Origin: Sphaeroforma arctica JP610
Taxonomy: Eukaryota
Reading direction: 5' to 3'
DNA: 41,264 bases
Assembly: GCF_001186125.1 (NCBI RefSeq)
Contig: NW_014039749.1
Span: 1 to 41,264 of the forward strand
In this document: positions 1,083 through 40,948 of the stretch, piece after piece
How the letters are laid out: each line of letters begins with the position of its first letter
Position numbering within the stretch: the stretch's first letter is position 1
Position numbers and translations under genes: made by a program
Notes under the pieces: generated by a model
Told to the model about the DNA's origin: nothing
Databases searched by the model: none
Seen by the model: only the letters and a program-made list of their open reading frames with translations

Positions 1083-2973
1083 ATGTCCAAGACTCCAGAA
1101 TACGGAAATCCACCTGACAGCACAGCTGATCTAGGGGGTGTATTTGAAGGCCTACCAGATGACGGGGATTCTGAAAATAGCGAACAGCGTATCTCCGCAG
1201 CCTCCAGACAGTCCCAAGCGTCCAATGCGTCGGAAGTAACACTCAAGGCTGAAGATGGGGATGCTGGTACCGATATAATAGGTACATCTGACAAGAACGC
1301 ACACGAAAGTGATACAGTGAGCGCATCTATTAGTGATGCACAAGAAAGTCGCAGTGTGAAGAGTGTATCATCCGGTAGTGGCAGAAGACTGCGCAATGTG
1401 CAGAGTGCCTTGAACATGCCCGTATTCGCTATGGGCGGCCAGATATTCTCGTACGATCACATGAGCCTGAACAAACTCAGTAGAGGGAATACGGTAGGTG
1501 ATGTAAACGCTGGTACACACAGAAAGAGGCCTCAGAGTGCTAAGGTATTGTGTGACACGAAGGACCGTGAAGTAGCGGGAGATGCAGCAGAGAGGACTGC
1601 ATTACCTCAGAGCGCAAATAGTATCAGCCGTAGTGCGAATACAAGAAAAGGAATACAACGCAAGAGCAAACCCGGAACACCGACGAATTTGGTGTTGAGT
1701 AGTGTGCACGGGAAGGGTGCGCAGGAGGATTTAACGGGTGGTTCAAGTTTTACTCAACACACTCCTGTTGGCACAGGTCATGATGCAGTACTAGGTGATG
1801 ATGACATTGACGTAGGTGTAGATGACACGAGCAGTCATGTATACGAGAAGGAAGTGGATAAATATACAGACAAACCACACGCACGCGAAATAGAAGAGAA
1901 TATACATGCCGATATAGCACACGCAAGCGACACGGAGATAGACGTCGGTGATGGTACGACAGAAGCTGTGGATGATGCTGATTTGGAGGTTAGAGCGATT
2001 GTGGGCGGTGAAGTGGAGGGACCAGTCCTGTCTACCACGACTGAGACAGAGACTGTGCCGGATACTGAGACAGCCAGCAAACCACCTAATACTGCGGAGG
2101 AGGATATTGAGACAACCGTTCAATCAAGTGAAGGTGTAAAGGAGGCTACAATCATCCAAGACACGGATACGACCGTTCAACAAAGTGATGATGCTAAGGA
2201 GGCTGAGAGCATTCCAGGTATTGAGACGGAAAATCAACCAGGCGAAGATACAAAAGAAGACAATACTATGCAAGATATCGAGACGACCGTTCAACAAAGT
2301 GATGATGTTAAGGAGGCTGAAAACATCTCAGATTTGGAGACAGAAAATCAACCAGGCGTAGATACAAAGCAGGACAGTACTATGCAAGATATCGAGACGA
2401 CCGTTCAACAAAGTGGTGATGTAAAGGAGGCTGAAAACATCTCAGATATGGAGACAGAAAATCAACCAGGCGAAGATACGAGGCAAGATGATACAAAGCA
2501 AGATATCGAGACGATCGTTCAACAAAGTGGTGATTTAAAGGAGGCTGACAACACATGTAACTCCGAGACTCTAGCAGTTCAACAAAGCTGCGATATTATG
2601 CAAACTGTCGATTTAGAAACAGAACAAAACGGCGATGATTCGAGGGATGCTGGGTCAGTGATGGACAAGCCTGACATTATTGCAGATGGCCGAGACAATA
2701 CGATAGAGGCGGCTGAGAGTGCTTGCAAGATTGCCCAGGCGGATACAAAGGCAGACGGGTCGGTTGAAGCAGTGTTGACTGAGGCCTCGGACCATAGTAG
2801 AGGTGAGGATCTGGGCGATACTGAGCATACTATAGATACCGAGGCTAGTGGGAGTGTGTTAAGTCTTACAGAAGGCGCCCAGCTTGTGGGCGGTGTACGG
2901 GGCTCGCAAGCGGAGAAAGATATGAGCTTGAACTTCGAACGACTCACCACCGATGAGCGGTCTACTGAAACAG
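1083..2973 (+). CDS. Formin exon 1: long acidic, low-complexity N-terminal region
   Basis: First ATG (1083) of the 645-aa ORF. The sequence is rich in D/E/T/S. Its donor CAG|GTACGT at 2973/2974 is phase 1 and joins exon 3734-3869 in frame. Confidence 0.8.
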
Positions 2974-5900
2974 GTACGTACGGTGAGAAGTTCTTGTAGG
3001 GATCAATGTGGCTTAGCGAGTAACATGCGTCAAGTTGCTCTTACTATGGGCTATTCTACTTACTACTCATGTACAGTGTAAATTGGGACATCGTAGTATC
3101 CCCCCCGAATTACCTGGCGATGTTCAGCTGCAGTTGTGTTTTGCTTGTGGTCAGTAGTCCGTATTTAGCTATAATATTTCTGTGACTTGTCAGTATTTTG
3201 TGCGTGTGAGAGTGTCCAATTTACAAGGCTATGGTCAGAGAGTTCATTTCCGGGTCGGTTGGCGATGTGGACTAAAACCTGTATAATCATTTTTGTGTTT
3301 CGGGTCCGAGTAAGCAGGCACGCGTGTATTGCATAGACTCACTTTATCACAGGCCTAATTCGTATTCCAAACGTGTATCTGTCTCGGTTGGCTGATATCA
3401 AGCGTTTCAAGCTATCGTACATACGGGCCTATAGTGGCTATGGGGAGACCTTATGAGTTAGATAAAAATTGAGTACATAAAAGTATATGGAGTGTATTGG
3501 AGATGCTATTGAACGCACGTGTGCCGGAAAGTAAGGTCATGCACGCTCGACCAGCAACTTCCGCACACATACCAATACGCGAATGGGCGGTGCTACCGAC
3601 AGCAATCACATGCATCAATACTTCGAACATGTTTAGTATCGTTGGCAATCCAATCCGTGAAACCCAAATGAGAAATACGAGAAGATGAGTACACAGTATA
3701 ATGGACATATGGTTCTCCACACACTCTGCATAGACGAGCTTGCGGACATACTAGATATGAGAGAAAGAGTACGTGCGGAGAGCGAATCAAGTGACGCTGA
3801 CTGGGTGAAGCTAGATGAGGAGATGAATGTGCCGACGATAGGAAATGGCAAAAAGGACAGGAAAAGCCTGTATGTACTGAAGTTATGCCCGTTTGTGAAG
3901 GTCGCATGCTTTTCTATGAATACATACTCTTCCGTAAAAGCCTATGGTACGAGCAATCTACTCAGTACTGTATAAGTCCTGCTTTGCGATCTGCGTGTTT
4001 GTTATTTTCTGAATACACAGATCAGAACCGGGCGCAAATGGGGATATACAAAGCCTGCATGCTTACCTTAAGAATATATATGCATTTTGAGGCGCATGCG
4101 TGTTAGTTTAAGTCGACAGACACAAGTTTCATCATTTTCTACGTTTTGATATACAACAGTACCGTCAGACAGATTAGTTCGGAGGTCCTGGGTAACGCTG
4201 TCGCCATTGGACCAGTTGAAAGGTAAGTATCCCCCTTTTTTTCGCACAGCACTTTCAATGGACTTATCAGTGGAAACAAAAAAAGGAGGGTTTCTGCTAT
4301 ATTCGCTCTTGCACAGACAGTCATTGAATACTTTTGAGTGCTTATATGTGTTCTACCAAGCTTCGTTTTAGCCATCGTGCACTCCAAATTCAATCGGAAA
4401 ACGTGCGAGGGAAACAGATCCTTCCAACAGGGTGCGTTGACTTGCCGAAACATCCCTCTAGGTGTCTTGGAAATAATTATGATTATAATCTTATCCGCAT
4501 ACGCGCACAGCTTTGGCGAAACCTTGCCCAAACGGCAGAGCAGTCTCGCTAGATATCTCAGCAGGGAGCACGAGCTGGAAGTCGGCGCAGCAGGCAAGCG
4601 AATATCGCTTGCATCACAAGTTTCAAACGATAGCGCAACCGATTGGCGGCGAAAAACCAAGGACCAGGTGTGTGGCAGATGTGTAGTATTCACCTGTTTT
4701 ACGAATTGAACTATGTTATTGTTGGATGGGATGGAGTATGGGTCTCTGGGTGTATGATCACCATTGTTGGAACACTGGAGCGTCTCTTATCCTTCTTGTT
4801 CTCCTTGCAGCTCCGTCGTGCCAACAGCGAAGTGGTCAAAGCCAGCAAAGGGCTGGGGAGCCGCCAACGGAGTGACACAACGAACGCTTCAAGTACATAT
4901 GACCAGATTGGCAGTGGTAGGAAGCAGTCAGTACCGTATGTCAAACAACAGTCATTCACACACAAACCGGCCACAACAGGTGCAGCATCTGGGTTGCACC
5001 GCACAAGCACACAGATGGCAGCCTCTGATTCCACAATGTCTGCTATGGATGCTGAGGCGAGGAAGCTCAGTAATCGTACCTTTGGCCAGCGTATCGGAGG
5101 CTCATTCAGGTGAGCCTTTTTTTGCAAGTGTATGGCTTCTAAATTGGCAGTGTTCTGAGCGTATACAGTAATACCAACGTCAATACAAAATGTAAACCTT
5201 CATATCTTAGTTTCCAAGTGTTTGCCAGGCCTCTTTAGTGGGCCATTAGGTACTGTTGTTGTATTGGACTTTTATTGCTTTGGCATACAACTACGTTCGT
5301 AGCATATATCACCGGATGTGGCCAATTATTCAGCAAACGTCAAGTGTATAAGACTGCTTTCATCGAAGTGTGTAGGAATATTCAATTTGAATTTTTAACC
5401 CCCAGTCTTAACAGAATTCAAAAGTCGGATCCAGCTATTGATAAGGAATTGCCAACTGGAGAGTTCACAGTACCGCGAACACGGAATATGTCACTAAACA
5501 TGGAGAGGACAGGGCAGGAGAACGATCTGAATATATCGGATGAAGCCATCCTCACAAATCCTGCGAGTATACTAAAACCAGTGGGAAACAGAGTCAGAAC
5601 CGATTCTTTATCTACCAAGAATCGCCAGACATCGTAAGCGTGCTTGTGTTGGATCTGGGACATTTCAAATGTGGTTTGTCGTGATGTATGGTGCGTGTAC
5701 TGGCTGCGAATATGTACAGGGGGATCGAAACAAATGATATTGTTTCTTCGGTGAGTAGGTCTTTGGAGCCAGTGCTATATGTGGTAGATTTGGAAACGCT
5801 TTATTTGCCCGTTGCAATAGCAGTGCTGGATTCAATTCACCATGTCAGCAGTTGCAACCGAAGCATACAATACTGACCGTTAAATCCCATTGATATATAT

Positions 5901-8900
5901 TTATATATGTGTCTGTATCGGGCAGAACTACGTCGAAAGGTCATGATGCGTTGATGAAGAAGCTTCAGGAGGAGAATGACCAACAGAAGGCACAAATCCA
6001 ACTCATGCAGATGCAGCTGAAGAAAATGGACGGTACAGGTAAGTGTGGGTTGCGTACGAATCGAAAGCGTGCTTTGCAATTTTGATCGGCTAATGATGTT
6101 AGTATCTTGCTGGGTGCACTCATTTGGTCACGTGAATTGTATGCGGCCGCGGGAGTGTACACATTAGCCTTGCGAAGCTCTGCGTTGCAAAGCATTGTAA
6201 ATTTGGATCAAGTTCTGCAGTTGGTAACACCTGACACGTAACTTCGTGCGCCTATTACATTCTTCATCCTTTATCCCATGCGCTTACAATTTGGCAACAT
6301 AACAGACAGCAGGAAGGACATCAATCTCAAGATAGAAAATCAACGCTTGGAGCGAGAACTCGCAGCGTTGAAGGTGAAGTACTCTGACTATTGTGACTAT
6401 TCTTACCACTTTGAGTCAATATTAATTCAGGAAGTACGCCGGAGGGTAACACTTTGTATCTGCTTGTTTTCTGGACAGCACGTGCATAGATCCACCGCGC
6501 ATTGCCCATTTGTCAGCCAGGCTGAGAGATCATTTGTGTACATCGATCATTTACATGCGCGTCTAAAGAACAAAAATAAATCGTTGAAACTCAATTTCTA
6601 GGAGGCCGCCGGGGACACAAATCTGTATGCGCTGGCAATGTCAGCTGACAGAGTCAAGTTGCTCGAGCAGGAGCAGGAACGGCGCCGGCACAACAAGCTG
6701 GGCAATGTGCAGTCCATCAATGTCACACTCAACCATGGTAGGTTTGTTCATGTATGCCGTAGATAAAGCCGTGTCTAAGACCAATGCATGTTGTCCGATA
6801 ACGATGTGTCTGCGACTATAGTATGTGTGATCCACCAATGCCATACTCTATCATGATATATCAGGTTATGTATGTGTCAGATATCGCTGTCTGGTGATCC
6901 ATCAATGCTGTCTGTTACCAAAACATGCGTGATCCATCAATGGCACACTCCATCATGGTATGTCAGATTATGTATGTGTCAGATAACGCTGAGTCAGGGA
7001 TCAATGCTCGTGCAGTCCCCAATGCCACACTCTATCATGGTATGTCAGGTTATGTATGTGTCGGATAACGCTGCGTCTATGATCAAGATTTGTGTAGTCC
7101 ATCAATGCCACACTCGATCATGACAGGTGTTTTGTGCACGGTCAGATCACCGAGGTGTATGTGTGTTTCTGGGTATGAGCCCATGTGTAGGTCGTCGTCG
7201 CAGAACAGTTCGTGTTCGCGTATTGCTTGCAGTCTGTCCAATCCAACTCATCGTGAGTGTGCTCAAACGGATGGATTGATTTAGTCGACGAATTCTGTTC
7301 GTATTTCTTGTCGTTCTCTGGGAAGCTGGATTTTTGTGGTGTACTTCTGGTGACCATAGGACAGTACTTCGCATATAGGACAGCGGGTGATATTTATCTA
7401 TGAGGGCAAATACCATTGAAACTGGTTTCAGCTGCTCATACCCCGGTGTATCAACGTTCCACACACTACAGATCCGTTAGCTATGGAGTCTCTGCGTGCC
7501 GGATTGATCAACTTGAAAAAGGAGAGAGACGATGCTGTGGCACACCTGGACAAGCTGAAATTCGAGTACGGTATCATAGAAGATATCTCCGAAATCGCAG
7601 GACCTTCAGGTACACCCGCGCCTTGTATGTGCGTTACTTGTGGGACTGTTAATATGAATAGCTGTGTGGCGTAAGTATCTATGGAGTCAGGTGGTTGTGC
7701 AGCACGCACTGCACAGTCCTGCAGTAGAGCATGTAGGTTATAACGGTGCTTGTGAATTAATATTTGATTTTCCAATGCCTGTCGTGGTGTGTGTTCGTTG
7801 CGTTTAGTTTACGTATGCTCTTATATCTTTGTGTTTTTTGCGTAAGGCGCGGACAAATATCATACATCTGACAGAGGGGCCACGCCCCACACAAAATGCG
7901 GTCGGTCGAGGACATGAAGCAGTTTGGTATGTCGTCAGAACAGTAATGTCTGCTCACTTGCCGTCCACGAAAGCAGCACGTTACCTGTCACGTGTTATTC
8001 TAACATGTCAATATGACTACATAGATTCAGCTAAAGGGATGACACCCGGTCAAGCACCAACAGGGGCAGCTCCAGGTAAGAATTATCTTCTAGATGCGCT
8101 TGTTAATGCGCGCACAGCAGTATATGTTTTCCCGTGTGCGTAATTCACTCCTCTATGGTACACCAATTGCCTTCAATATCTAAATCACCAAGCAAACAAG
8201 TCTGTTATACGGGTATATGGGCCATACAAGCTTATTGCACTTTTAACTCTCGGATGAAGGTGAGATATGTGGACACGTACATATGCTGCGGAAGCGTCCT
8301 ATGAGCCCTAAGCACATGTAGTGTATGTGCGCGAAATTGATGGGGGCGTGATATTTATAGCAGATTGGTATGCAAGTGCTCACAGATTACTTTATATGCA
8401 TATTGTAGTCAGACCATTTATGACCTGATCTATACGAAGATTGCACTTAATTCTTACAAGGCCCCGAGTCTTTGATTGTAAATTATTGCTGATGATGGTG
8501 TGTGGCAATGCTATAGCTCGGGGGATATGTCACCACGCATTCCAGAAAGTGGATTCACAATCGTGGAGGCCTCACAAATGTTTAGAAACCCTAAATTACC
8601 AAATATAGTTATTGAGTATATCCTACAGTAGACTCTAAAACAATCACTTTATTACATAAACTTCCTAATTTCTATAGAATCTTCAGTCTGCACAAAGCAT
8701 AGTACCACAATCATACCACGGTGTACGTATTTCAGTGTAGGCAGTTGCCATTAATCTCCTGGCTCAAGATATATTGTTGGTTAACCTGAGGCTTTTGTAT
8801 GCGATTGAATTGCATTGTGATGGCACGTTTGTAAAAGTTTATAATCAGTAGGTTACATCAAAGCATGTGCATGGTTGCCCCTGCCTTCATGATACACACA

Positions 8901-11900
8901 CGTCATCATCAGTAGATAATAATTCTCCATTCGATAAAGGCGATGGTGAATCACAGGATTCTGACATGCCATGCAATGATTGGACTTCAGTGAGTGTCTA
9001 TAGCTAACTAAACTCATACAAATATTTGATTGCTGCGCGCTGTCACCTCCTTCCCGAGAACAGCAACAAATGCACCACCACCACCACCACCGCCACCGCC
9101 GCCACCAAGTAAGTCAGGCGTTTTGACTTTATACTATATAATAACATGACTTCGTCGTCTATAACAATAGGGCGAAGCTATGTCTTTGTAACATGGATTT
9201 ATGGCGCGTGACTGTCATTGTCATTCTAAACAGCTCTTACTACTGAGCTGTCGATTGCCTCTCCAGCCCTTCCGTATGTACAAATATGAAGTAACCTTAT
9301 TTATACTCGGATATTTTCTAGATTGGTTGGACGTCCAATGTGCTTATGGCGTTGGTACCGGTATATATGAATCATTACCTACGGAAACTTTGCATACGAC
9401 TCAAAAACAGAGTGACGCCAAATGGAGATTTATTCACCATTGCAGAGCGTCTATATATGTAGTACTATATTGAGTTTCGGCTCATTGTAGCCCTCATTGT
9501 GCTTTCTGCTACAGCTTCCAACGCACCACCACCCCCACCCCCCCCTCCGATGTCCAACGCACCGCCGCCACCACCCCCACCACCAGGTATGGGATACCCT
9601 TCTGTGAGTTACGGTCAGTAGTTCCCGTGTAACTTCCTACCTAGCGTCGTTTGATCGCATCCATTCCTTGTTGACTTCGTTTCGCGCGTTTTAATTGATA
9701 TATGTGCTATGAGGACGACAGTTTACAATTGACCTCGTCATTTCGCAGTAGATGTCTATTGTGCGTGGTCTCTGATCGTTCCAAATCATGGTCCTGATGC
9801 ATACGTACTCAGCGTAATCGCTTTCACTTTCGCCCGCCTGCCCGCTTTAGCATCAAATGCACCGCCACCACCACCACCACCACCGGCGTCGAGTGCTCCA
9901 CCACCACCACCACCGGCGTCGAGTGCTCCACCACCACCACCACCGGCGTCGAGTGCTCCACCACCACCACCACCGTCACCACCGGCGTCGAGTGCTCCAC
10001 CACCACCACCACCACCACCACCACCACCACCCCACCCCCATCAGGTGAGAAGCCAGTTTGTACCTATATGCTTGTGTTTGTGGGTATCACTTTGTATTTG
10101 GATGTGTCTTTGTATGTATACATCAATGTATTTTTGTATGTGCAGTTTTTTTTGGCAAGACTTTCATCTAACTCAAATCTTTGTCTGGCCTTATGGCCGG
10201 CGGAGCTCCACTACCACCGCCTCCGCTTTCATCAGTATTCGTTGCGGACGTTATGTGCATATTCCAATGCATACTCTCTTTGAAGGTTGCAGGGAATATT
10301 GTGCAGGCTTCGAATGAATGGTCTTCTTCATTTCTATTCACTTGACACCACATGTTATCCTAGTTCGTACTAGCCTACTTGCGGATATACGATATCCCAG
10401 AAGCATTGCGCCTTTTCTGAGCTTTACGCAATTGCTTTAAACATCCGTACAGGAGTAGCACAGCCACCACCGCCACCGCCGCCACCACCAGCTTCTGGTA
10501 TGCAACGGGTTTAAGTGTACAGCTGAATCTCGATGTATAAATCCATGAGGGGTTGATCTATGCCTGAACTTATGTTTCTACTTGAGGCGTGTAATGGTGG
10601 GTGGTACATTTGTTTGTATCTGCTTATAAGTTCGGATTCTGGTTGGGGATACTCCTTACATCCCGGTAATGCCAAGCGTAAAAGCTTCCTGAAAATGATT
10701 TCGAACATCCATGGCTAAGGCGATGCTAAGTTGAATCAGCGTAATTTGTCTATCGATATCATAAGCTCTTCGTGCCTTTAATTATCTAATTAATTTAGGT
10801 AATAATATGCACTGAGACTGAAAGACTTAAAACTTTCTTCATTTCTTCCCATATTTCATTCTCGTAGGCGGTCCTCCACCCCCACCCCCACCACCCCCAC
10901 CCTCAGGTATGCTTACTTAATCTATTGCTTGCAACTATCGCTCGTATACATCCCTTTACTCATCAACCTGTTATTTCTGTTGTGACTACATATAAGTGAA
11001 CCTGCATAATATATGTATCTCGCAAACAGTGGTTGGCATTGCATTCGCATGCAGCTAGTGAGCTACTGCGGAGGAGAAGTGCGCCACAGGCTCTGTGTGG
11101 CGTGTCTCCACATTTCGATGTGGGTACTTCCTGTTGTAATGCCACTCCGCTGAGTTTTTATCTTCACAATTTGACATTTACAACTGTGCAGGAGGAGCAC
11201 CACCACCACCACCACCACCGCCGCCACCACAACCCTCCGGTAAGTCAGGGTAGCATTTGACAAACACACGAATAAATGTACACATGGTATCAGATGAATG
11301 TACACATAATCTCAGCTTATATCAGTTAGGTTTCCTAAGTGAAGTGTAAGCAATTCATTGTTGTGGACCTGCTGGCTAGACATAATGTAGCACCAAAGTT
11401 GTACCTTTAAAACACCACGCACGAGGTGGCGCTATTGCTGCTAGAATGCATTACAGCCAAACCCGAGTTTAGGTAAGTTATACGAGTGTGCTTACTAGAT
11501 CGTACCACTAACAAACACGCCACTAACAAAAACAGGAGGAGGTCCACCACCACCACCGCCGCCGCCACCACCACCACCACCGGGTAAGTAACATTCAGTC
11601 AAGAATTTGGTCCCATAATCTACAGATTTGATGTATATTCGCAAGAATTGGCTAGCACGCCGCACAGAATACGTCGAACGACTTCGTATGTGCCTTTAAA
11701 ACAACTCAATGATATGCAATTGGAATCACGCACGAGAATCGCTCACGTCGCGTATACTTTTATTCTTGTATGCAGGAGGAGGAGCCCCAGCGCCACCACC
11801 ACCACCGCCACCACCAGGTATTTTATGTTTTGATACGGTTTTGACTTTACTCCGGCGGGTTATATATAATAGCTACTTACCATTCACGCGTTTGTGTATA

Positions 11901-14900
11901 TCCGACCAAACGTATTGGTTTTCTTGGAAAACTCTATGTATTGCTGGAGTTGGTCTACCTTCTCTCCCACTACCACCATGTACGCACAAGTTGCCAAACA
12001 ATTCCATAGTCGCACATCAGCTTTACTGTTATAAGGTATCCGCAGAAGCTACCATCATTCACGTGTAAGTATTCACGGCACGACACACATATCATGACTC
12101 ATTTTGCACACACATCGCGTTCGTCGCTACACACAGGCGGAGGTCCACCGCCCCCACCCCCACCACCAGGTACGTGGGAATGAATTCATATACAATATGC
12201 GCCTCCTTGCTTCGGCGCCTTCAAGGCATTGCTCAAGCCTGTTCTCAGTAGTGCACATGCCTGCGTAGTCTGACGGAACTGCGCTTCCTTTTAGTGACAA
12301 CCACCTGTATGTTTTTTATTCCTACCCAGGAGGAGGCCCACCACCGCCACCACCGCCTCCAGGTAAATATTGTTTAGTCAACGAACTAGTCCCATCCGCA
12401 GGGTTCACCACGGTGTTGTATCCGTACAGCTGTTCATCTATGTGTCTAGCTAGAAACAGTGTCGTACCTGATTATCGCTTTGTCATGCGAGTTTCATACA
12501 ATGTTTCAATCGCTAGCGTGACTATCAACACGGTAAACATTCAGAACAATATGTGTATGCCTTCAGTAGACAATTATGCGTATTCCTCGAAAGGTACATA
12601 CCAATGCATGATTCTTATAGTTCACTGTCATGTTTCTGTTCCATACAGGAGGCGGCCCACCGCCACCACCACCACCGCCAGGAGGAGGACCTCCGCCTCC
12701 ACCCCCACCCCCAGGTATGAATGTGTCAGTCATATTCATCATATGCACAACAATTCCTGCACATATACCGGTTTTATATTTAAAAATATATAGGTATGAG
12801 TGATGTATGGCTACTCTCCCGGGTGCATCATACGCACGAAGGGCTCGACATGTTGCCACATGATATTGTCTTTAATATATTTCTATATGGCCAGCTACAT
12901 GAATATGAACTTTTGCATATTCCGAATAAGATCGTTACGGGTTTTGCACGCATGCTTTCGACAACGCATACGCCGCTGCCTTCACGGAACATATACAAGC
13001 GCATGAACCAAATAATCTCTATTGTGATACACTTCCCTGTTCCACTGGTAGGACAATTGTGCAACCTAGCCAGGTTGAGCTGCAAGATAAGTGCCTTACT
13101 TTTGCCAACGGCGTACTACTCTCTATTTACGTGGACTCATGCATCGATGTATATATCTTTTTTGGTTCCGAGACTCAAAAGTTAGTGTGAGGAGAGTTTG
13201 CCAAATTTCCAGGAAGCAAGAGATATCTCGAGAAACTTGTATTAATCATATCTTTGGTCTTGATTGATGCTCTTCAGGTGTCGGACCCCCACCGCCCCCC
13301 GGGGCGCCAGCCGCGCCGGCCGCGCCGGTTGTGCGTAAGTACTGTAATCGACCTGTTTGAATCATATGGGAGAGTTGTATGTGGGTGTAGAGTCTGCTCT
13401 CCAGTTCGTTGTCGGTCGTGCATGTGGTTGTTTTGATGGTTGTGGATGTGGTTGTGATTCCTACCCCAAAGTAGCTGGCGTGTATCTGCTGTCACAGCAC
13501 TGAAGGTGTGTCGTCACACCAACGGAAAGTGCTGTACTGTTTTTGACTTTCAAGTTGTGAATCAATTCATGGTGGATTTCGGTTTCTACAAATTGATATT
13601 GCAAATTTGTGTTATGATTAGATTCTATCTAGTCACGTTCACGGCTTTATAATCAGATAAAAAGAGGTACATGACTGCTTGCACGTATGGGGTATATCGC
13701 TTGCGCAGGCGTTGTCCTCGACTCGAGGACACGTGATGTAGAAGTGGCTTTTACCTAATTGCTAATTATTTGTCCTAATTATTTTTAGCCCTGAGACCAA
13801 AGATTGTACCAAAGAAGAAAATGAGAAGTCTGTTTTGGAAAAAGGTGGAGATGAACAAGCTTTCGCAAGACAAGTAAGTGATGTCTAGCGCAATGAGAGG
13901 CATCCAACCAGTCACGAAGTGAGCTCAAATTGCAATTGTGCACAAGTTGGCGGGTTATTCTTTGTTCTTAAGGTCAAGACCCGGTGCAGAATCATGACGG
14001 TTTGTCGTATACTCGCACCGTCGTACAAACGTATCCTTATCGTGTTCTGTCGCATTGTCGTATTGTTGTTTTGTTGGGTCGTCTTCCTTCTAGGCTGCCC
14101 TGCTTTCATACGGGTGTGAAGCCAGAGCCCCTTCTGCGCATCTCCTGCCATTACAGCCTACCTCTGGAGGCGTGTTCCTACTGGAACCATCTGAGATCAA
14201 ACCAGTCTCTCCTGCCCGGGTTGATAGAGTATATTTTCATCGTACTGCCGTGAAATTTGTTATAGCCGTGGTAGTTTTCACCATCTCAAATTCAAAATCG
14301 TATACATATCGACCGCAGAGACAATGTGTGGAAGCATGTGGAGGACATTCCTATCGGAAAGATTGAAGACGAGCTACTGAAGCTCTTTGCACAAGCAGCG
14401 CCGGTGAAGAAGGAACCGGTTAGTGCAATTGGGTGTTATGAAGTGTGGACTAAAATGTTGATAATAGTGATACAGTATTTGCATATAAGTAATCTTATAT
14501 GTTGAGAATAGCAAGACATATATATATTTCAGACACTTTTAGGTGTATATCGACATGTTTGGGCCAGCATCACCGTATATGTCATAAATCACCAACGAGA
14601 GATGCTATTGATACAAAATTATAGCAACATCGTACGTGTATATCGGATGCTGATGGGTGTCTTTGTCACCATAGTGAGACTAACAACACGGTATATGCAT
14701 ATCAGATACCTATTGTTGTATGGTTGATAGTAGCAGCGGGGTGCGTGCCTTCAAGGCACTGGTAAGTGTAGATCGTTATGTTGGTGCAAACAGCACGTTA
14801 CAGGCAGATCCGACATTATTAAGTGTAAATTCATATGTTGACGCTAGCAAATTGGCATGTGAATATCGGACGCTAGTTAGTTGTTATCTTGAGGACATTG

Positions 14901-17900
14901 CTTATACGACACGAACGAAACAGAGACTGTGGAGGTATATGAACAGGACACGATCAGCTATACCGTCTATGTATATCCGATACTGGGGAGTGTGTACATC
15001 AGCAACGTTTACTACACTGATGAGCGTGTGTATCGTAGTCATAGTACTCATATACGTGCCCCGGTCACATATTCTCGTGCAGAAAGCCGTGGAGGAAAAG
15101 CCAAAAGTGGCTCAAATATTAGATTCCAAGCGATCACAAGCCGTGGGCATTGTGATAAATAGTCTCCAGCGCAAAGGATTGGGTATCGATGAGGTGAAGA
15201 AAGCCATTCTCGAAGTAGATTCAGAAAAATTAGGGAACGATAATGTGCAACAAATAGCCTCCGTACTGGGAAAGCCGGAAGAATTGGCACAAATTAGGAG
15301 TCATGTGGGATCAAGCGATACACCTTTGGACCGGCCTGAACAGTACGCTTCGTGTAACTGTCGTTGTGTTAAAATATACATCTGAAGACGAAACAGGACA
15401 TTTTTTTGTGCTATTCTTTTGATTGTATGTGTTTGTACAATCATAAGTCTAGAAATGTGATTCGCAGAACGGGGTCAAATATACGTTTCGGAGTGCAAGT
15501 ATATAATTTACTGGGTGTGCATATCCACGATTTCTTGCTTGCGTCTTCACAGATACTGGTAGCAATAATTTGCATGTCATCATACCGGTAGTACGGCCAA
15601 ATATGCCCTTACTATAGGTACTTGAAAGGAATACGTTGGCAATAATCCATACTGCTGTACTCTTCTCTCGGTGTACTACATTGAGTGTGTCTGTACACAT
15701 GCAAGGCCGTGTGTGTGTGGTTGCAAGAAGTGCTGTGCGAGAGCGATGACACGTGCACCGTACTGTGCGCATGGGCACACTTGTTCTATGGGTTTACCCC
15801 TTGTTGTACGCAAATATTTATTTGTACACAAATATACTTCTGCATTGAGCTATGTAGACGTGTACAAATGGATTACAGGGTGCAGCGACAGTGTATTTGC
15901 TTGTTGTGGGTAATTTTACCTGTGACTGTGTTCACTCTCTGTCGTCTAGAAACAGTGCCATCACTATATGTGCCATGTGTCGTATGTGACGAGTAGAGCA
16001 TGTCTCATGCAATTAACTAGTTGTTTTATGACTGTTGTGTGCTGAAGATATGATTTTTCTTCTTCTATCAGGTTCCTACTGACTCTAGATGAAATACCGG
16101 CGCTAGAGGCATGGATGGAGTGCTGGAGATTCAAAAGTATATGGCAAGAGGAGCTCGATGAATGCGAGGGCAAGATCGACTCCGTCACCAAAGCAATACA
16201 CGTATGTCGATACGCATCTGTACCTAAAACAACGTATCCAAAGTACATGCCAACACAGGCGCCACACACGCTGGCTGTGAAACACGACAGAGATACTAAG
16301 CAATCGCTGAAACGGCATGGTGGGGGGGGGGGGGGGGGTTTTCATGTTGATATCAACACTGCGTGTTTGCATTCCTCCTTCTATTAAGTACATTACAAAG
16401 TATATTCAAATCCATACCCTCAGGCTATACGAGACAATGAGGCTATCAAAGAAGTGCTGGCTTGGGCCTTATGTATAGGCAACTACATGAATGGTGGCAC
16501 CAACAGAGGTCAGGCAGACGGATTTGCCATTGAGCTTATCCCAAAACTGGGAGATGTCAAAGTATGTCAATAGGGCCTGTTATCAGACTAGACGACCGAA
16601 ATGGTACTTCAAACTTTATTTTGTGAGCGTATGTGCGTTCCAACATGTGTTTTCATGCATTTATATCTCTGACACTAATAGTTGCTCTCGGTTATATTTA
16701 TTACTCCCATAGTACGCAGCCTTTATCTAGGGCATGTTAACTCGGCTCTCCATGGAGTGGTACCAATATCATGTACATGTTTATGACAGATAGTAATGTC
16801 TTCAATATGCACCTCCCTGAACTTCCCACACAAATTCGTATCGTCTGTACGGAACATTTGGTTACCAGTCAGCAGATCAGAAGACAACCCTGATCAGTTA
16901 CGTAATGTCAAAGTTATACTACAAGGGTATCGACATCAACGAGATCATCGATGCCATTGTCGCGAAGGGCCAGGCAGAGCCTCCGAAAATTCGTAAGTGA
17001 GAATACTGTACCATATTTGACCAAACAAGGACCTATTCCGGCTTTCTGTAGTGTCCAGAGTGTATCTTCTGGCCATACAGAGATACAAACTTGAACAGTA
17101 GTGAGACGCCGGTGCAAGGTTTGTTCACGGCTACTAGAGGGTACTTGTACGAATCGTGAAGAAGTGCTTCGATGTATATGGTCTATGTTGAAGTGTTCAA
17201 CGTTAAGGTAGCGCTGTCTTAAATTATAGTCCCAGAGATACGTGAACAGGGGCCTCTGCATGCCCACACTGACTCGGTTAAAGTATGTAGCACAGCAATA
17301 ATGGGAACACAAACATTCAGCGATCCTTGCACTGACCACGCTATAACAAGTTCGAGGTAGCACTGTTATGGCTAGAGGAAGACGCAGTGCCCGCTGTGGA
17401 AGTAAAGGCCATGTACTCTTGCAGATCTTAAACGAGCATTTGATTATCTGCTGCGTTGATATCACTATTGCAATCTACGGGTTATATGTGGAAGGATTCA
17501 CCCACACATGAGATGTATGACGAAATTGATCTGACGTTCACTTATTGATATGTCCTGTCGCTGAGCTGACTTTGACATTTTCCACTTCTCTCGCTCTACC
17601 ACCTGCTACTACAGCTTTCCCGTTACCGGCTGTGTCGATGTGTGAGAAAGGCGCCAGAATCAGTTTTGAAGACGTAACGAGCAATGTGGCCCAATTAGAC
17701 AAGCTTTTGAAAAGTATGATTTTCTTTTTTACTGAGCTCACAACTTTTCTCTGTTGGGAACCATCACTCTACCATAGGCGTCGATTCCGACCGTTGAATT
17801 GAAGACATGTTCGCCCTGGCAGGCTGTATAGTTTCTTGTGCTACCTCTGAACATGTTACACGCAATGGTCTTTAGTTAATTAGCATATCTTGAGGACGTA

Positions 17901-20156
17901 TCACCACTAAGCAGCTCGGCGGCTTAGATTTGAAAAGGCCGCTGAATAGCTAGTGCGGCAAGTGCGATACCATGCGTGCATCAAATCATGTATATGCAAC
18001 ATTGGTTCACCGTATGCACTGGTTGGTATCTTTTTGCTAACAGCGTTTTGCAACCCTCCCCTGACAACCCATAACAGATGCGAGCAACCGTGTGCCCCAG
18101 GTACAGAAAGCAATAGAGGCGGCCGAAGTTGTAGATGGGGCGCCCTTTGAGGAGAAATTGGCCAAATTTATGAATGAAGGTGGGTAGCACACCTGTCCCA
18201 CGTGTTTGTGTTTAGGCTATACGCAATACTTGCGTATAGCCTAGGCGCGCGTCTTGTTTGATAGAAACTACCGGTAGAAGATCTTTAATGATTTGTTTGT
18301 CTGTTAGTGTAGAATGGAGAGCTCAAACTCCGACTCCAGATGAACAAAGATATCGAAGTTGCAGGGAATCTAATCTAATTTATGAACCACTAGTTTGTAA
18401 GTGCAATCCAGCTTTATTTTACGGTAGCGAGCACTACGCTATATACTGTTGTTTTCAATGTTCAAATTTGGTTGAGTGAGTGTCGAATACAGAGACCAAA
18501 TCATATCGACAGTGTCCACTGTAGTACATCACGCACCATCGTTAAGCCGCATAGTTGTACGGCGCGTCGGTAATAGTTTATGGTTTGTGTGGAATAGAGT
18601 ACACCAGTGTTCTAGAGTACGCGGATGGTTTACTCTCGATATTTACCGTAGCTCAAAAAATGAAGACACCCAACTATTACCTGCACGCGATTGCGCTCAG
18701 TTCAAAAATACTCTCACAAATATTATCACGATGCAAACCAACGTAAATTGCCCTCCACAACGTGTTCCATTTAAACTTGAACACTATCTACTGTAGCGGA
18801 GGCCTCGTTTGATGAGGTGAAACAGGCGTTTGACAGCATCAAACAAGACATATACAAGCTGGCTATTTATTACGGTGTTCCAGATATGAAGGTATGTAGA
18901 TGGACTGGTGTGGGCGAGATTGAACTTTTGCACACGTGGATGTGCCGGAACAATGTATTTTTCTTTGCATACTGGTGCATTAGTTACCTCCCTTTATAGG
19001 CAGGACTGATGGTACTACAGTTCGAATTTATATTGACAGAGAAGCAAATACAGTTCGTTGCACGTACCCGTGGTCATACGGTTATTTGACATCCGTTTCT
19101 TCAAACTTTTCGTGAATTCATATGTCAAGTTGTTATACTTGTTATCGGCCAACTTTTCAGAACTATCACTATCCCACCCAATGATTAGGCGAAGAAGATG
19201 ACATCAGAAGAAATGATCGATCTGTGGTTGCCGTTCTTCACGAAGTGCAATGACGCCTGGGAAGCAGAGGAGAAGAATATATTGGGCACTGTGTAAGTGT
19301 CTTGAACTCAGCTAGTACATTATAAGAGCATCTCGGGCTGGTGTTTCTCTAATTCCGCACCAAATTCGTACACTGGTTTATTTACGCAAAGTAGTGGGCT
19401 CAAGTGCTAGAATGGTTTCTCTCAACTTAATCTCATTTACAGCAAAGCGAAGATTCTAGAAGAGAAAAGGCTGAAGAAAGAGGCGGTCGCTACGAAGAAA
19501 GCTGTGAAACCGTCGAAGACGGAGGGCAAGGAAGGCAAATTATCATCAATGGTGCGTGAACGCGCATACCGCACATATATTGTCTATATGCGGAAGATTT
19601 CCACCTTGTATATTTGGCCTCTGCTACGAATATACGAGTTCACGTGTTATACAGCTGGCTGATATTTACAGATGCTGATGATCTTCGTATGCGCTCACGG
19701 TACTACTTGAAGGTGGTGTGTACTTTAAGAAACTTCGTACATTGTGTATTCATGGGATCTTTACAGTATGTTTTGTTACCTGCCACTTTCGCAATACAGG
19801 GTAAGAAATTTGGCAGAATCGGGCGCAAAAAGAAAGGGAATGCTGAAGCTGGTTATGACCCAGAAAAGTTTGCTAAAAAGAATGGCCGGAAGCAGTCTCC
19901 TGATAGTTCGGTTCCAAATTCAATTGAAGATGTTTCTGGTAGTGTGAGCAGTGGTACTAAAGGAGTTGAGAAAAATATGAACAAGGACAAAGCAGATACC
20001 AAGACGAACGATGCCAAACAGAACGCTGGAAAGGAGACTGATAAAGGCAACAAAGATGGCAAAAATAGGAGACGCGGGAGCAGTTTCATACCCGATTCCG
20101 ATGCACTTACTACCCAGCCCGGACTGGTGCGTGGTATGTCGATGAACGATATTTAA
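1083..20156 (+). CDS. FMN: Formin, Fmn/Cappuccino subfamily (acidic disordered N-terminus, coiled coil, FH1, FH2, basic tail), 35 exons, ~1,898 aa
   Basis: Phase-consistent GT-AG exon chain: 1083-2973, 3734-3869, 4160-4222, 4511-4667, 4811-5109, 5415-5633, 5926-6038, 6306-6373, 6602-6737, 7472-7609, 8025-8075, twelve FH1 exons 9064-13334, 13789-13873, 14319-14418, 15083-15342, 16072-16201, 16424-16561, 16869-16992, 17615-17713, 18078-18179, 18797-18891, 19189-19292, 19443-19551, 19800-20156 (TAA). FH2 hallmarks: MRSLFWKKV, ILDSKRSQAVGI, LDRPEQFL, GNYMNGGTNRGQADGF, LIPKLGDVK, FPLP. There is one apparent 1-nt deficit, in exon 9851-10044. The symbol is subfamily-level. A short upstream exon ending at 574 (CAG|GTGAGG) is possible. 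Confidence 0.9.
2100..2590 (+). repeat. Coding tandem repeat: 114-bp (38-aa) unit built from two 57-bp half-units
   Basis: CAAGATATCGAGACGACCGTTCAACAAAGT-like starts at 2157, 2271, 2385 and 2499 (spacing 114), plus a half-unit at 2100. Peptide QDIETTVQQSDDVKEAENI/SDLETENQPGxDTKxDxTM. Confidence 0.9.
6707..7125 (+). repeat. Degenerate tandem copies of the formin exon 9 3' end and donor site
   Basis: GTGCAGTCCATCAATGTCACACTCAACCATG|GTAGG at 6707 recurs in variant form at ~6825, ~6927, ~7010 and ~7092. Confidence 0.8.
9064..13334 (+). CDS. FH1 (poly-proline) domain encoded by 12 small phase-1 exons
   Basis: Exons 9064-9108, 9515-9586, 9851-10044, 10453-10497, 10868-10906, 11192-11239, 11536-11583, 11776-11817, 12137-12169, 12330-12362, 12649-12714, 13278-13334. 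Each has AG/GT ends and encodes (G/A)xxP(5-13) tracts. Eleven of the 12 lengths are multiples of 3. Confidence 0.9.
10200..10235 (+). pseudogene. Decayed FH1-type pseudo-exon (GGAPLPPPPLSS)
   Basis: GC GGA GCT CCA CTA CCA CCG CCT CCG CTT TCA TCA G resembles the neighbouring FH1 exons. It has no AG acceptor and no in-phase GT donor. Confidence 0.5.
11947..11979 (+). pseudogene. Decayed 33-nt FH1-type pseudo-exon (GVGLPSLPLPP)
   Basis: Same length and layout as the 33-nt exons 12137-12169 and 12330-12362. The donor GTACGC is retained, the acceptor reads TGCTG instead of TGCAG, and several Pro codons have become Leu/Ser. Confidence 0.65.
13789..19551 (+). CDS. FH2 domain exons of the formin
   Basis: The spliced translation contains the lasso Trp residues (LFWKK, NVWKH), the knob KRSQAVGI and the post GNYMNGG..GQADGF..KLGDVK motifs. 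Confidence 0.95.
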
Positions 20157-21086: not shown

Positions 21087-24000
21087 ATGCTAGTTAGGAG
21101 CTATGGACGCATTCGCATGAACTATGTGCCATCATATATAAGATGCGGTATGGGAAGCCCAGGCGGACGAATGATCTCGTCGACAGGTCAAAGCTCGACG
21201 GAGACGCACACAGAATTTGAACAGCCGCGCTCGATCACCCAGCGACGAGACGAAAGCACACAGTACACCTATACTCCTGGAGAAGGCCAGGTATGTTCTG
21301 CCTGAAGTTGACTTCAATGAAAATCATAATTTTATCAGTCATAGGGTAGCTGTCAAGCTCATGGTATATCACGCATGAAGTCGGGCCTATCATTCAATGA
21401 TTGACCAGAATACTATGCATTCAGTGTAACTGTTTTTGAGCAGTGTGCTTGTATATATCTATGTTTTTGTTTATATGTATATTTCGTATATAAGAGATAC
21501 CAGTCTTTAGCGCTACGTGCGCACTACAGAATTTTACGCGTGACAAGTTTAATTCTCGGAACTGAAATCTCTGTCAACACTTCTATGTTCACAATGAAAT
21601 AAGTATTCGAAGTACGATTGTAAGATTACGTATTCACAGTCATGTAAAAGCCACAAGGTCTGAATGAAACTTAAGTTGTTTTCGAATGCCTGACTAATTC
21701 TGTTTAATCTCCAAGTATTCGGGCAATGTGAGTGTACAGGTTATAGGTTCTAGCGTCTGACTAATATTCTTCTATGTTCTGTCTATCAGAGCAAGGTGAA
21801 TGTAAAGCATCTCGGCTCCGCTGGAATTCAAGGCGGGGTGACTGCAATTAGGCAATTTCTTCAGACCACTTTTCTGCCAGCGGGATACCCGGAGAGTCTT
21901 GGTCCAGGGTATCTCACGTTCGTTAAATATCAGGTACGTTGCTTCATGCCTAGTATAGTTTTCTTGAGATACGATACTGGCGTTAAATATCAGATACGTT
22001 GCTTAATATTCTTCTCTGCTTGAAGGCGAAGTCTTAAATTCTGGATACCAGGTGGTAGACCTTCGGCTTATGTACTTTGACATTTGCACGATGATACTTT
22101 GTACTATTTAAAGCCATCCAGTTGTTCGGCATTTGATACTGATACTGGTGCGCGTCTATTACAAATATAGTTTCCATTAACACGTTGATTGAAAATATTT
22201 GGCAACCATGTTATTGCCTACTTATGTGTTTGTGCGCTATGCAGCCTTGATTGTGAACGGCATGCTTGCATCTCGGGTTCCTTTTCGCTTCGTAGCACTC
22301 GTATTGCCCGGGTTCCATGCTGATATTCTACAGTACATCCGCGTATGATATCACTCGAGTTGCATTGGCGTGTATACGTCTGAATTCCACTTATCACCCG
22401 CACATCGACGTAACTTCCAGGTTATTATTCCCTCATCAGTCTTTGCATCACGTAGCCTCGAGTGTAAACGGCGTGCTTGCGTCTACGTTTCTTTTGTACG
22501 GCGTAGGCCTAGGCGAGAGCGCAGCCCCTGTTGCCGGTGCTGTCAATTGGGTCCTAAAAGATGGGTTGGGCCAGATAGGAACTCTGATGTTTGGCAAATT
22601 GATTGGTATGAACTATGCGTCTTGTTCATAGCGCATACTCTCCCACTCTCCACTGCTATACTATTGGAAATTAACCGTAAATCGTGATAATGACATGCAT
22701 TCAGTGGATTTGCCGGCCACTCATGCTCCCTACCCACATCATAACCATTGGCAATTGATCGTCTTTTAACAACTCGTGTATTACTGTATGGATTTTTTTT
22801 GGCAGCTCACAGATTTGATCTGAACGCGAAGACTTGGTATCTGTCTGCATCAGTGATGCTGAACGTAGGTATGTTTGGCCCGTTTCGATGTAAAATACCT
22901 ACCGCTTCTATTTTTCAAGCATCAAAGATATCGGTTAGGAAACATTTGGTCATTCAAAAAGCGTGTAGTCGCTCATACAGATCGATTTTCTCTCTTGCAA
23001 TGGATCAAATATTGAGTGGCTGTACTTTTACTAAACTCCGCTGTTTCGTACTCTATACTTATTTAGGCGTGTATCTCGAGTTGTCAACATTCATGGCTCC
23101 CCACCACTTTCTGGTATTGGCTTCGCTCGCTAATGGAATAAAGGTACGAGGAGCTGCCATATCTTGATCACTGGGTTAAGTATCGTGAGCACGGTTTCTC
23201 CTTATGGTGCAAGCACAATATATGCTACGTTCGCAATCCACAGCGCGACAGTCGTTTTGCGACGTGATCGGGGTACTGCACGTTAGACACTTGAATATCC
23301 ACTTTCGATAGGAATGGAGTGATGTTGAGATGAATCTTGAGTGGAGGGTACCATGGTACCTATAGTACGTATCTATATTCATAGGGTTTAAACAGGAATG
23401 GGTGGAATGCTTCATGTACTATAGCAATATTGATAACGGATATTTGCGCATTTCCCGAATTGAACCACGCCTGTTTAATTTATACCCGATTTACATCCCA
23501 ACTAGCCTAGTAGTGATTACGCCGTATATTTTTGAATCGGCCTGTCACAATTTGTATCGATTTGCTAGGGGCTTGCTTGGATGGCGGGTGGTTCGACGCG
23601 CTCCGCCTTCAATGTAAGCTTTGCCAGGGCCAACAACATTGCAGACATCACTGCGAAGGCTACTGCTCAAACGATCACCGCGTCTCTCTTCGGTAATATT
23701 CTACAAAGCTATCTATAGTGTTCTGGTTTGTGCAGCGGTACACCGTACTTTTCTCCGTGTAGATTCAAGGGCCATGGTTACCCGACGTAGGACCACACAG
23801 TACGGCTATCTCCTTGTGCTCAAACAATTGATACTGCTTAACATCGCATCTGAAGTCTCACTATCTTTTATCAACTCAGGAAACCTTATCGGCGTGTACC
23901 TCTGTAGTCAAATCGGTCAATCGCTCCAGTATGCTGTGGCGGCATGTGCGATCACATCTTGCGTGCATCTGGGTGCGGGTATGTCTTTACATCCGAAGCT

Positions 24001-25852
24001 ATCAATGTTTTTGCGTTGGCGATAAACTTACAACCTGCATACTCTCTTCGAAAGCACAAGTGTATCTTATTTTGTATGAGTGTGTGAATATACTGCCGGA
24101 TTATTGTGTAATTCGTACACGTGTTTTAACTGTAAAGTATCCTTTTCTTAGCTAGTCGTTCGTAATATGCGCACAGGTTGCCGTTGCCGTTAGCACAACA
24201 GTGCCACAGCTACGGCACTGTGACCGCTGGGTATTGAACATGGGGCGAATGGGTTAGAGATAGTTTCTGATGATGTGATACTAAATACCAATACATAGTG
24301 AGATCCTTGTTTTTGTGTTGGGACCCCCTCTGGGGCCTAGTATGGCTCAACAACGATTTTGTAATGACTCGGGTTAGGTATACTCGTAACATATATTTTG
24401 ATTCTTGTACCAACATACACAGCTTATTGGTGCGTGCGAAACATTCCGCTGAGCACCTTAAACCCCAGCCGGTTGCAGCTTCTTACAGATAGATTCCTGG
24501 ACTATCGCCGCTCACGTATGACTAGTGCACCTGAAAACCACGATAAAGGTACCCGCGGGACAACTCAATTGGCTCTAATCTATACTGTTGTCACAAACTA
24601 CTTTTTGTTCCGCGTGAAGGGTTTCAATCAATGTGCCTTCGCATAGTTCTCGTTCATGAACTGCTTTTCTGCTTTCTATATTAGAATGGGATCAATGTAT
24701 GCTCAACAACAACGGATGCGACCAAATCTTGAAAATCGAGTAGTTGCAATAGTCTGACTGTATCTTTTTTTTATGGAATCAATACAATGTTGTCTGTCCT
24801 TTCCGCAGCTCTGCCAAACCCAACCGACTTGGCTTTAGAGGACCCAGCCGTCCATTTTCCGCGTGTGCAGGTACAATTGAGAATGAGTTCATTTTTCCTT
24901 TTAATTCAGACTAGTTTATCACTGTTTATGACGGCGATGCAATCGTGGTGGATCACTCAGAAATTTGCGATGATGAGATTTCCAGAATATTGCTATAATT
25001 TTAAATTGTTTGAACCCTACCTAAGTTGTCAATGAATGTTCCACTGTAGCGCGACCAACGATTCTTGCCCGCCATCTCCGTTGGTGTGGATGTGATAGAG
25101 CTCTGTGGAGGCTCATCGAAGAAATTAGACGAACTACTCCAAATATATAAGGATTTGCCTTATATTGCCTCTGTAGATGATGCTGACGGGTCTGTTATGC
25201 TGGTGTTCAAGGAGGACGCCACTCCCCATCAGTGTCTTCGAGGTATATTTGGCATGTTGAAGTTCGAATGTCTTTTGAGGGTCAATTTAGCTGAACATGC
25301 ATCGATGGTCGGCAAAGGGTTTGATACTTGAAGGGGTTATAAGTCCGCACGCAGATTTTCGGTTTATAATCCACTACAAATCAAAAATATTAAGCAGTTC
25401 ACTAATAGATCATCTCTGCTGCTCAGGGTACCTGAATGCATGCATATTAAGAGACAGCTCTCGACAATGCCAACGAATAGATCGAACACCTGGTATGTTA
25501 CTTTTGTGCCTGTAGCGGTGCATGTCGTGTTGGAATGCGTGTGCGATTTTGTTGTTGCAACTATACGGCTCGGCTGATCTCTTTTTGTCAATTTTTTCGA
25601 ATACCTTCGCTTGCATTGTTGTGATTAGACGTATCTATTGTGCTGAAATAGTGCACTTCACTTCACCTCACACACCATGAATGCTCTTTCTTAAATCGAA
25701 ACAAATACGGAGCAGCCAGCAGAGTACAACTACTCGAAGCGATAGAGGAAAGCACTGCTGCTCAGGCCGAATATGTTGCACAGCTTGAAAGTACTGGATG
25801 GCATTATAAGCGCTTACAAATAGAGATAAATTCGAATAGAGCTATGTGGTAA
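21087..25852 (+). CDS. RUSF1: RUS1 / DUF647 (root UVB sensitive, C16orf58-like) family membrane protein, 12 exons, 486 aa
   Basis: Exons 21087-21290, 21790-21933, 22440-22605, 22806-22868, 23067-23143, 23569-23692, 23880-23978, 24423-24548, 24809-24870, 25050-25242, 25427-25492, 25716-25852, with all phases consistent (1461 nt). Family motifs: FLPAGYPES, WVLKDGLGQIG, RFDLNAKTW, NNIADITAK, TLNPSRL and the C-terminal LESTGW...RAMW*. The symbol is family-level. Confidence 0.88.
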
Positions 25853-27221: not shown

Positions 27222-28124
27222 CTATAATTGGCCTACGAATCGTTCCGTGGGCTTTTTTCTTTTGGTGAATTTCGTTAATGAAGTAAAGATTCGCGCAACG
27301 CGGGCTGACCTACGTGGCGATTGGTTGATATACTCACAATCAACTAAATATCTCAGGTTATACCACTTCAAGTGTACGTGTTGCAATAAGTAGCGTATAG
27401 CTCCGTGCACTAGCTGGGATACCAGCATCGTGGGTCCAAGGGTGATTTCAACCACTTTTGATCGCCTTGTCTCTTTTTCAACTAAACTTGCATACAACTG
27501 TGGGGTTGTACTGATAGTGGACTGGTTACCTATTCGAACTATACAGGTTTCTGGATTAAGGCCTGCCTCTTCTCCCACACTGCCCCTTTCAATATATGAT
27601 ATGTTGCCATCACCTGTAAATGTAACTCCGATTTGATCGCTGAAACGTCTGTGGGCTTTGGAGACATGTTTCGGAACGTGAATAACATATTTTGAGAATG
27701 CACTCTGATCCACCAATTCTATGGTAAGCACAGATGAAGTGTCCAGCTGCTCATTCGCGTCTTGAATAACATCGGATACTTTATAAGCCAATGCTTCCAG
27801 AGACAACGCGTTGATCGAGGTCAGCTCGTCACCGAATCTGAGTCCTGCTCTAAAGGCCGCAGTGAATGTGTTGTCTGCGTTGTATCTTTCCACATAAGCT
27901 ATATAAATGGTATTCCCCACAAAAATAAGAAATATACCAAATGCCTGCCCGGCCTCTTTCTTCACCCTAACTTCTCGTCTTCTGGTGGAGAAAAATTCTT
28001 CCCGCCAGCTTGGGCCTTTCTCCCTATGAATTGAGGTATCAATACCGAAAGTATCAGCTATCACTTGTTGACTGTTTGTCCCTGTGTTTTTGGTGTTTAA
28101 GTATGCAAAACTTTGAGACTCTTG
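27222..28124 (-). CDS. Syntenin-like tandem-PDZ protein, single long coding exon, 5' end unresolved
   Basis: REVRVKKEAGQAFGIFL...AGLRFGDELTSIN (PDZ1, with the syntenin-type GLRFGD) followed by QIGVTFTGDGNISYIERGSVGEEAGL...IVRIGNQ (PDZ2). The frame is open to a stop at 28146-28148 with no upstream ATG. There is a likely acceptor ACCAACAG| at 28125/28124. Confidence 0.75.
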   Translation of the reverse strand, partial: QESQSFAYLNTKNTGTNSQQVIADTFGIDTSIHREKGPSWREEFFSTRRREVRVKKEAGQAFGIFLIFVGNTIYIAYVERYNADNTFTAAFRAGLRFGDELTSINALSLEALAYKVSDVIQDANEQLDTSSVLTIELVDQSAFSKYVIHVPKHVSKAHRRFSDQIGVTFTGDGNISYIERGSVGEEAGLNPETCIVRIGNQSTISTTPQLYASLVEKETRRSKVVEITLGPTMLVSQLVHGAIRYLLQHVHLKWYNLRYLVDCEYINQSPRRSARVARIFTSLTKFTKRKKPTERFVGQL

Positions 28125-28149
28125 CTGTTGGTATTTTATATTGCCTCAC

Positions 28150-37148: not shown

Positions 37149-37182
<34 letters not shown>

Positions 37183-37183
37183 G

Positions 37184-37214
<31 letters not shown>

Positions 37215-40850: not shown

Positions 40851-40948
40851 CTATATATATACATATAAGTATATATATATATATATATATACATTTATAT
40901 ATATACATAAATATATATATATATATATATATACATTTATATATATAC

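Follow-up and report, generated by a model that had tools for sequence, protein, structure and literature searches.

We analysed a 41,264-nt window of the genome of Sphaeroforma arctica JP610 (contig NW_014039749.1, positions 1 to 41,264 of the forward strand; "the window" denotes this whole stretch), which carries a formin gene whose proline-rich FH1 region is distributed over 12 mostly short consecutive exons located immediately upstream of the FH2 domain.

A formin gene with a long proline-rich arm

The gene and its FH2 domain occupy the following positions:

1083..20156, plus strand: formin gene, a 35-exon model of 1898 aa when one unknown base is placed near 10030, with the terminal stop as its only stop codon.
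13789..19551, plus strand: FH2 domain, 11 exons of mixed phase, with PF02181 matches; alignment with FMN/Cappuccino formins of animals spans 430 aa at ~30%.

A Pfam scan matched PF02181 in four of five FH2 exon pieces, two of them above the curated cut-off (E 2e-11 and 2.8e-12), and in a local search the joined FH2 model aligned with animal FMN/Cappuccino formins at ~30% over ~430 aa (E 3e-61). The best FH2 matches found with one exon reached 42–48% to FMN-like proteins (50 matches). The model also contains the conserved FH2 motifs known as lasso Trp and GNYMN. Directly 5' of FH2 lies the polyproline FH1, with 18 tracts in 226 aa (70% Pro); the last tract ends 12 aa from the FH2 start and the tracts span 12 to 227 residues from FH2. 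A reading of the locus made from the sequence alone (hereafter, the sequence-only reading) had proposed a formin FH1 built of micro-exons, and the FH2 matches, the contig joints described below and the gene model support the formin identity, the position of FH1 and the exon layout. The gene is a transcribed, spliced formin (FH2 protein). In formins, FH1 tracts bind profilin-actin, and both the number of tracts and their distance from FH2 affect elongation; the long FH1 arm found here is predicted to feed profilin-actin to the filament end bound by FH2.

The best FH2 matches of this protein were FMN/Cappuccino formins (Branchiostoma FMN1, insect Cappuccino, and formin-like proteins of molluscs and echinoderms), with which it shares a long low-complexity N-terminus followed by FH1 and FH2, without any GBD/FH3 match in the exon pieces scanned. 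Unlike those of animal FMN/Cappuccino formins, its FH2 branched on a long branch outside a clade of 25 animal FMN rows (support 95/98), in a tree that retained 29 of 51 rows (22 were dropped for aligning under 300 aa) and held no reference rows of other formin subfamilies. Neither GBD/FH3 nor DAD was matched in five N-terminal exon pieces or in the last exon, all scanned singly and at lower sensitivity, and the last exon had no Pfam match. The FMN/Cappuccino subfamily is characterized by a Spire-binding C-terminal tail.

Several other features were observed within the gene. Its first exon (1083-2973, plus strand, 1891 nt) is acidic and of low complexity, contains 3.4 copies of a 114-nt repeat at 2169-2553, and no relative of it was found. 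An intronic tandem repeat of 82 nt (2.3 copies) occupies 6933-7122, and a run of 17 G is located within an FH2 intron at about 16322-16338. Two introns, at about 12514-12560 and 14672-14723, have a stretch of ~50 nt in common (z 5.1, the highest among 378 pairs), which might be a small repeat element.

Layout and transcription of the FH1 exons

The FH1 exons and the two exons that precede them are listed below; contig support refers to four sequencing runs that we read as transcript-derived (see below).

7472..7609, plus strand: 138-nt phase 1-1 exon, predicted coiled-coil-like, 5' of FH1; contigs in 4/4 runs.
8025..8075, plus strand: 51-nt phase 1-1 linker exon; contigs in 4/4 runs.
9064..9108, plus strand: FH1 exon 1, 45 nt, 11 Pro; both joints in 4/4 runs once a misplacement was resolved.
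9515..9586, plus strand: FH1 exon 2, 72 nt, a doublet with 8+8 Pro; AG/GT ends, contigs.
9851..10044, plus strand: FH1 exon 3, with five tracts and internal 30-nt repeats that are perfect; assembled length 194 nt, true length likely 195; run X16 uses its acceptor.
10453..10497, plus strand: FH1 exon 4, 45 nt, 9 Pro; a second, weaker acceptor lies at 10464; joints outside contig cover.
10868..10906, plus strand: FH1 exon 5, 39 nt, 10 Pro; AG/GT ends; joints outside contig cover.
11192..11239, plus strand: FH1 exon 6, 48 nt, 10 Pro; AG/GT ends; joints outside contig cover.
11536..11583, plus strand: FH1 exon 7, 48 nt, 13 Pro; AG/GT ends; joints outside contig cover.
11776..11817, plus strand: FH1 exon 8, 42 nt, 8 Pro; AG/GT ends; joints outside contig cover.
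12137..12169, plus strand: FH1 exon 9, 33 nt, Gly3-Pro8; AG/GT ends, run X16.
12330..12362, plus strand: FH1 exon 10, 33 nt, Gly3-Pro8; AG/GT ends, run X16.
12649..12714, plus strand: FH1 exon 11, 66 nt, a doublet of Gly3-Pro8; run X16, with an 8-letter loose end in run X18.
13278..13334, plus strand: FH1 exon 12, 57 nt, 5 Pro and the linker to FH2; contigs in 4/4 runs.

The exon lengths given by the sequence-only reading (45, 72, 194, 45, 39, 48, 48, 42, 33, 33, 66 and 57 nt) are exact, and all 12 exons are bounded by AG and GT. The whole window contains 18 plus-strand runs of at least five CCN codons, all of them inside the 12 FH1 exons. A single tract is found in nine exons, in agreement with the statement that most hold only one; two further exons have two tracts each, and the remaining exon has five. 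The 66-nt exon indeed pairs two 33-nt units, as the 72-nt exon pairs two units of 36 nt. Tract lengths range from 5 to 15, and among the 160 Pro codons 54 are CCG, CCC or CCT rather than CCA. The term "micro-exons" was overstated: limits of 3–27 nt and, more loosely, of 51 nt are in use (here and below, published work is cited for those sections of it that were available), and eight of the 12 exons measure at most 51 nt but none at most 27 nt.

As proposed, each exon starts in phase 1 of its proline frame, and the run of phase 1-1 exons begins two exons further 5' than the array first noted, at 7472-7609 and 8025-8075. The 13 introns flanking FH1 exons are all in phase 1 when one unknown base is allowed, and 12 of them are so as assembled (p 6e-7 and 2e-5, respectively, for an expectation of one third), whereas the other 21 introns of the gene are evenly divided among the three phases (7/7/7). 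Chance as the origin of this uniform phase is excluded.

Among 24 sequencing runs, 15 held all sampled words of 1083-8100 and four held a share of 0.42. None of the runs is recorded as RNA, and we infer the transcript origin of these four because their share matches the computed exonic share (0.421) and because GT..AG joints are present in them; their intron-only bins were without depth. Contigs of the four runs (three studies), placed on 7400-14500, supported seven of the 13 FH1 introns, every joint being between neighbouring exons. Joints 8075-9064, 9108-9515 and 13334-13789 were present in all four runs, and joints 9586-9851, 12169-12330, 12362-12649 and 12714-13278 in run X16. Contig placement passed over the repeats in 9851-11817, where missing cover is no evidence either way.

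Some proline pieces were placed on look-alike exons, which we resolved from the contig letters and from an identical 24-mer that exons 9064 and 10453 have in common. The apparent joints 8075-10464 and 9586-12658 were misplacements of this kind, the intervening letters being exon 9064-9108 and the start of exon 9851. We also rejected a candidate exon at 7847-7926, which has an in-frame stop and across which contigs join. In run X20, which carries the label of another organism, a share of 0.17 of the words was present; this run may come from a relative with an ortholog.

Origin of the exon array

We consider it rather likely that the phase 1-1 FH1 array arose by old tandem duplication of cassettes composed of an exon plus an intron, and that it is probably spliced mostly constitutively. 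The ends of neighbouring exons are more alike than in random order (110 vs 85.2 +/- 6.6, p=0.0003 in an adjacency test). Three consecutive exons share an Asn-Ala leader at their start, and in each the intron stands at an identical place, followed by C instead of the AG|G proto-splice context; the common leader and this register before C fit the duplication of an exon together with its intron. In addition, when aligned in register beyond the donor, the introns after 11583 and after 12362 agree at 18 of 30 letters (p about 0.01 after Bonferroni correction for 66 pairs); no intron pair among 231 controls exceeded 14 letters. The 194-nt exon contains recent, perfect (100%-identical) 30-nt repeats and a pure CCA run of 11 codons. 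One intron holds a further element:

10199..10235, plus strand: decayed intronic exon copy, with a Gly-Gly-Ala-Pro start, two Pro-to-Leu changes, a Ser end and no working splice sites.

Ten of the 12 FH1 exons align better with this element than with any of 254 other non-exonic tiles, and when about 35,500 non-exonic windows are ranked by CCN codon content, five of the top six lie on it; its splice scores are below 0.

Unequal crossing-over would have multiplied the cassettes. Units other than frame-preserving 1-1 ones would not outlast such duplications, which would make the uniform phase a by-product. The array would still be gaining units, as the doublets and the 30-nt repeats suggest, and losing them, as the dead copy does, so that tract number would likely be tuned over evolutionary time by the birth and death of exons and not from cell to cell by splicing. 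Uniform phase 1 needs no splicing purpose, because exon duplication or the Pro/Gly codon make-up suffices to produce it. Disordered regions are often built of symmetric exons through internal tandem duplication (Schad et al. 2013, PMC3632108).

Several observations weigh against duplication with mostly constitutive splicing. Whole FH1 introns lack homology (78 pairs, mean z -0.03, 0 above z 4), the best whole-intron z being 3.2 under lenient scoring; cassette duplication rests therefore on the exon ends and one intron pair, and the events would be old. An ortholog for comparison was not found in protein searches, which returned no self or ortholog protein and 598 pattern matches, none of them confirmed. 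In humans, phase 1-1 exons make up 21% of alternative versus 11% of constitutive exons (PMC3632108, Table 3). Six of the 13 joints lie outside contig cover and contigs drop rare forms, which makes constitutive splicing no more than probable. The one-base slip on which the uniform phase of all 13 introns depends (see below) is likely, judged from the assembled sequence. Finally, in one contig end of run X16 (record 2) only 80 letters, in frame, separate a repeat of the 194-nt exon from exon 12137, where the all-exon path needs 283-382 letters and no subset of exons yields 80. Possible sources of this short contig end are a chimeric contig, a shortcut taken by the assembler, a contracted allele and an unannotated form.

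The sequence-only reading had favoured a different significance for the array, a splice-tunable elongation rate. Stage-specific regulated skipping would then generate isoforms differing in the number or spacing of tracts and tune the rate of actin elongation, in a non-animal formin. We regard this as unlikely, even if all 12 exons would be frame-neutral with a 194-nt exon of 195 nt and the X16 contig end is unexplained. For Bni1, replacing two of the tracts slows elongation (PMC11773026). Exon skipping in one ichthyosporean affects 12.3% of multi-exon genes, with skipped exons being somewhat more often in frame (38.6% vs 30.3%) and little change over the cycle (PMC6855841). However, no exon-skipping joint was found among the seven FH1 joints seen in contigs (six middle joints being outside their cover). 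The splice sites of FH1 are no weaker than those elsewhere in the gene, with intronic signals, scored by training on other introns only, of 6.8 vs 6.4 for donors (p 0.50) and 5.0 vs 4.3 for acceptors (p 0.73); alternative exons tend toward weaker splice sites. Raised exon skipping has been described as confined to bilaterians (PMC6142364), and the FH2 of this formin falls outside the animal FMN clade. Since the probability of transfer drops with distance from FH2 (10.1101/263566), the loss of distal tracts among the 18 is expected to change little. Tract number is also equal among the long members in all five FMN-like clusters that have several of them (four animal by name, one unnamed).

Improbable to a similar degree is that FH1 grew as one long exon and later gained introns at CAG|G proto-splice sites, for which phase 1 is the sole option in Pro/Gly codons (the proto-splice model of intron gain is reviewed in PMC3488318). 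The FH1 introns are mutually unrelated as wholes, and the coding sequence of FH1 offers phase 1 at 18/18 AG|G and 27/32 AG sites, unlike the rest of the gene. Nevertheless, only 6/13 introns are at AG|G and 8/13 follow AG, three consecutive introns stand in the same register before C, and a separate gain would have been required at almost every tract boundary. The intronic dead exon copy and the matching intron pair, which fit cassette duplication, would be unexpected under intron gain.

The 194-nt exon and its frame

As assembled, the gene is frameshifted. In its proline frame the 194-nt exon finishes in phase 0 and the next exon is then read into a stop at codon 1196, the break, overlooked in the sequence-only reading, being located in a C-run at about 10030-10033. 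The claim that any subset of the exons could be skipped without a frameshift applies only if the 194-nt exon in fact measures 195 nt. Placing one unknown base near 10030 restores an uninterrupted frame of 1898 aa. We think that the length of 194 nt very probably reflects a one-base assembly slip in the C-run, given that this run has four C whereas 11 five-C runs occur elsewhere in the FH1 exons (the sole other four-C run is in frame), that the following acceptor at 10453 comes first and scores 8.5 vs 3.5 for 10464, that the mended exon would end in Ser as do the next three exons, and that run X16 includes the exon (9586 joined to its start).

Alternatively, the assembly of this exon might be right, with the frame restored through use of acceptor 10464 or through loss of the exon by skipping; otherwise the allele would be truncated before FH2. 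Both routes are stop-free (1895 aa with 10464, 1834 aa with skipping) and 10464 is a CAG acceptor. Yet this acceptor lies downstream of the stronger 10453 and would introduce His-Pro-His-Gln into a tract, where the tracts next to it have a Ser end. The joint in run X16 places the 194-nt exon in some transcripts, and an intact and transcribed FH2 argues against a truncated allele, so that a correct assembly seems distinctly unlikely. The decayed copy at 10199-10235 was also considered as a frame rescue and was ruled out by its splice-site scores and by the lengths involved.

The same exon bears on the suggestion that introns were kept since splitting CCN repeats would guard them against slippage, which has little support and is very improbable: the longest pure CCA run and the sole perfect long repeats do lie in one large exon, with pure runs of 1-6 codons in the other 11, but these features show expansion within that exon, each tract is whole within an exon and shortened by no intron, synonymous CCG, CCC and CCT codons already break the runs, and the tracts vary in length.

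Comparison with known exon arrays and formins

With 18 tracts of at least five Pro, this FH1 exceeds the 65 proteins examined, which have at most 11; moss For2 and vertebrate FMN2 are equally tract-rich. Short, frame-preserving exons are found in schistosome micro-exon genes. Neural microexons (SRRM4 type, 3-27 nt; DAAM1) also share these two properties with the FH1 exons, of which 0/12 are of at most 27 nt; DAAM1 concerns one regulated exon.

The layout resembles tandem arrays of symmetric exons such as those of calpastatin, MAP2, the PPAK repeats of titin and collagen (PMC3632108), which also consist of consecutive 1-1 exons encoding short disordered modules with neighbours alike. Unlike in those arrays, the module is here a profilin-binding polyproline tract in a catalytic arm, and the available sections of that paper do not give formin FH1 as an example. 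Among formins the nearest case is Chlamydomonas FOR1, which likewise has a many-tract FH1; its authors allowed for either 3 or 10 proline-rich repeats "depending on splicing" and assayed both constructs (PMC6938247). Unlike the array described here, FOR1 represents a choice between two readings of a gene, not one tract per exon, in an unrelated lineage. We found no report of a formin FH1 split into small or alternative exons in the literature searched, which included few subscription papers, and nothing on FH1 exon arrays in the available sections of PMC555941, PMC2386819, PMC12159680, PMC13507409 and PMC4739763. The layout is real and unusual; it follows a pattern known in disordered repeat proteins that we did not find described for a formin.

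Other features of the window

The intron-rich style of the window and a neighbouring syntenin-like PDZ frame would suit a relative of animals. Downstream of the formin gene, the window contains:

21790-25850, plus strand: multi-exon gene of the RUS1 family (PF04884, E 7e-13; PF24160, E 9e-05).
27222-28145, minus strand: syntenin-like PDZ protein, an intronless open frame of 307 codons (PF17820, E 9e-09; Atlas score 0.94 to Syntenin-2).
About 33300-41000, minus strand: multi-exon gene encoding a probable membrane protein, in which a small patch near 35370-35420 is acidic and polyproline-containing; two pieces without Pfam match.
34764-35083: intronic tandem repeat of 159 nt, 2 copies, 95%.
36699-37139: gap of 441 N.

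Implications for formin evolution

If the one-base break sits in the assembly, the gene would be prone to mis-annotation as truncated. If exon skipping were found, it would represent a direct control of polymerase speed by splicing, none of which is described in the literature searched. A natural FH1 with 18 tracts would allow the dependence of elongation on tract number to be followed beyond the 2-14 sites of seven formins (10.1101/263566). An FH1 arm that evolves by the birth and death of one-tract exons would provide a route for formin speed to drift between species.

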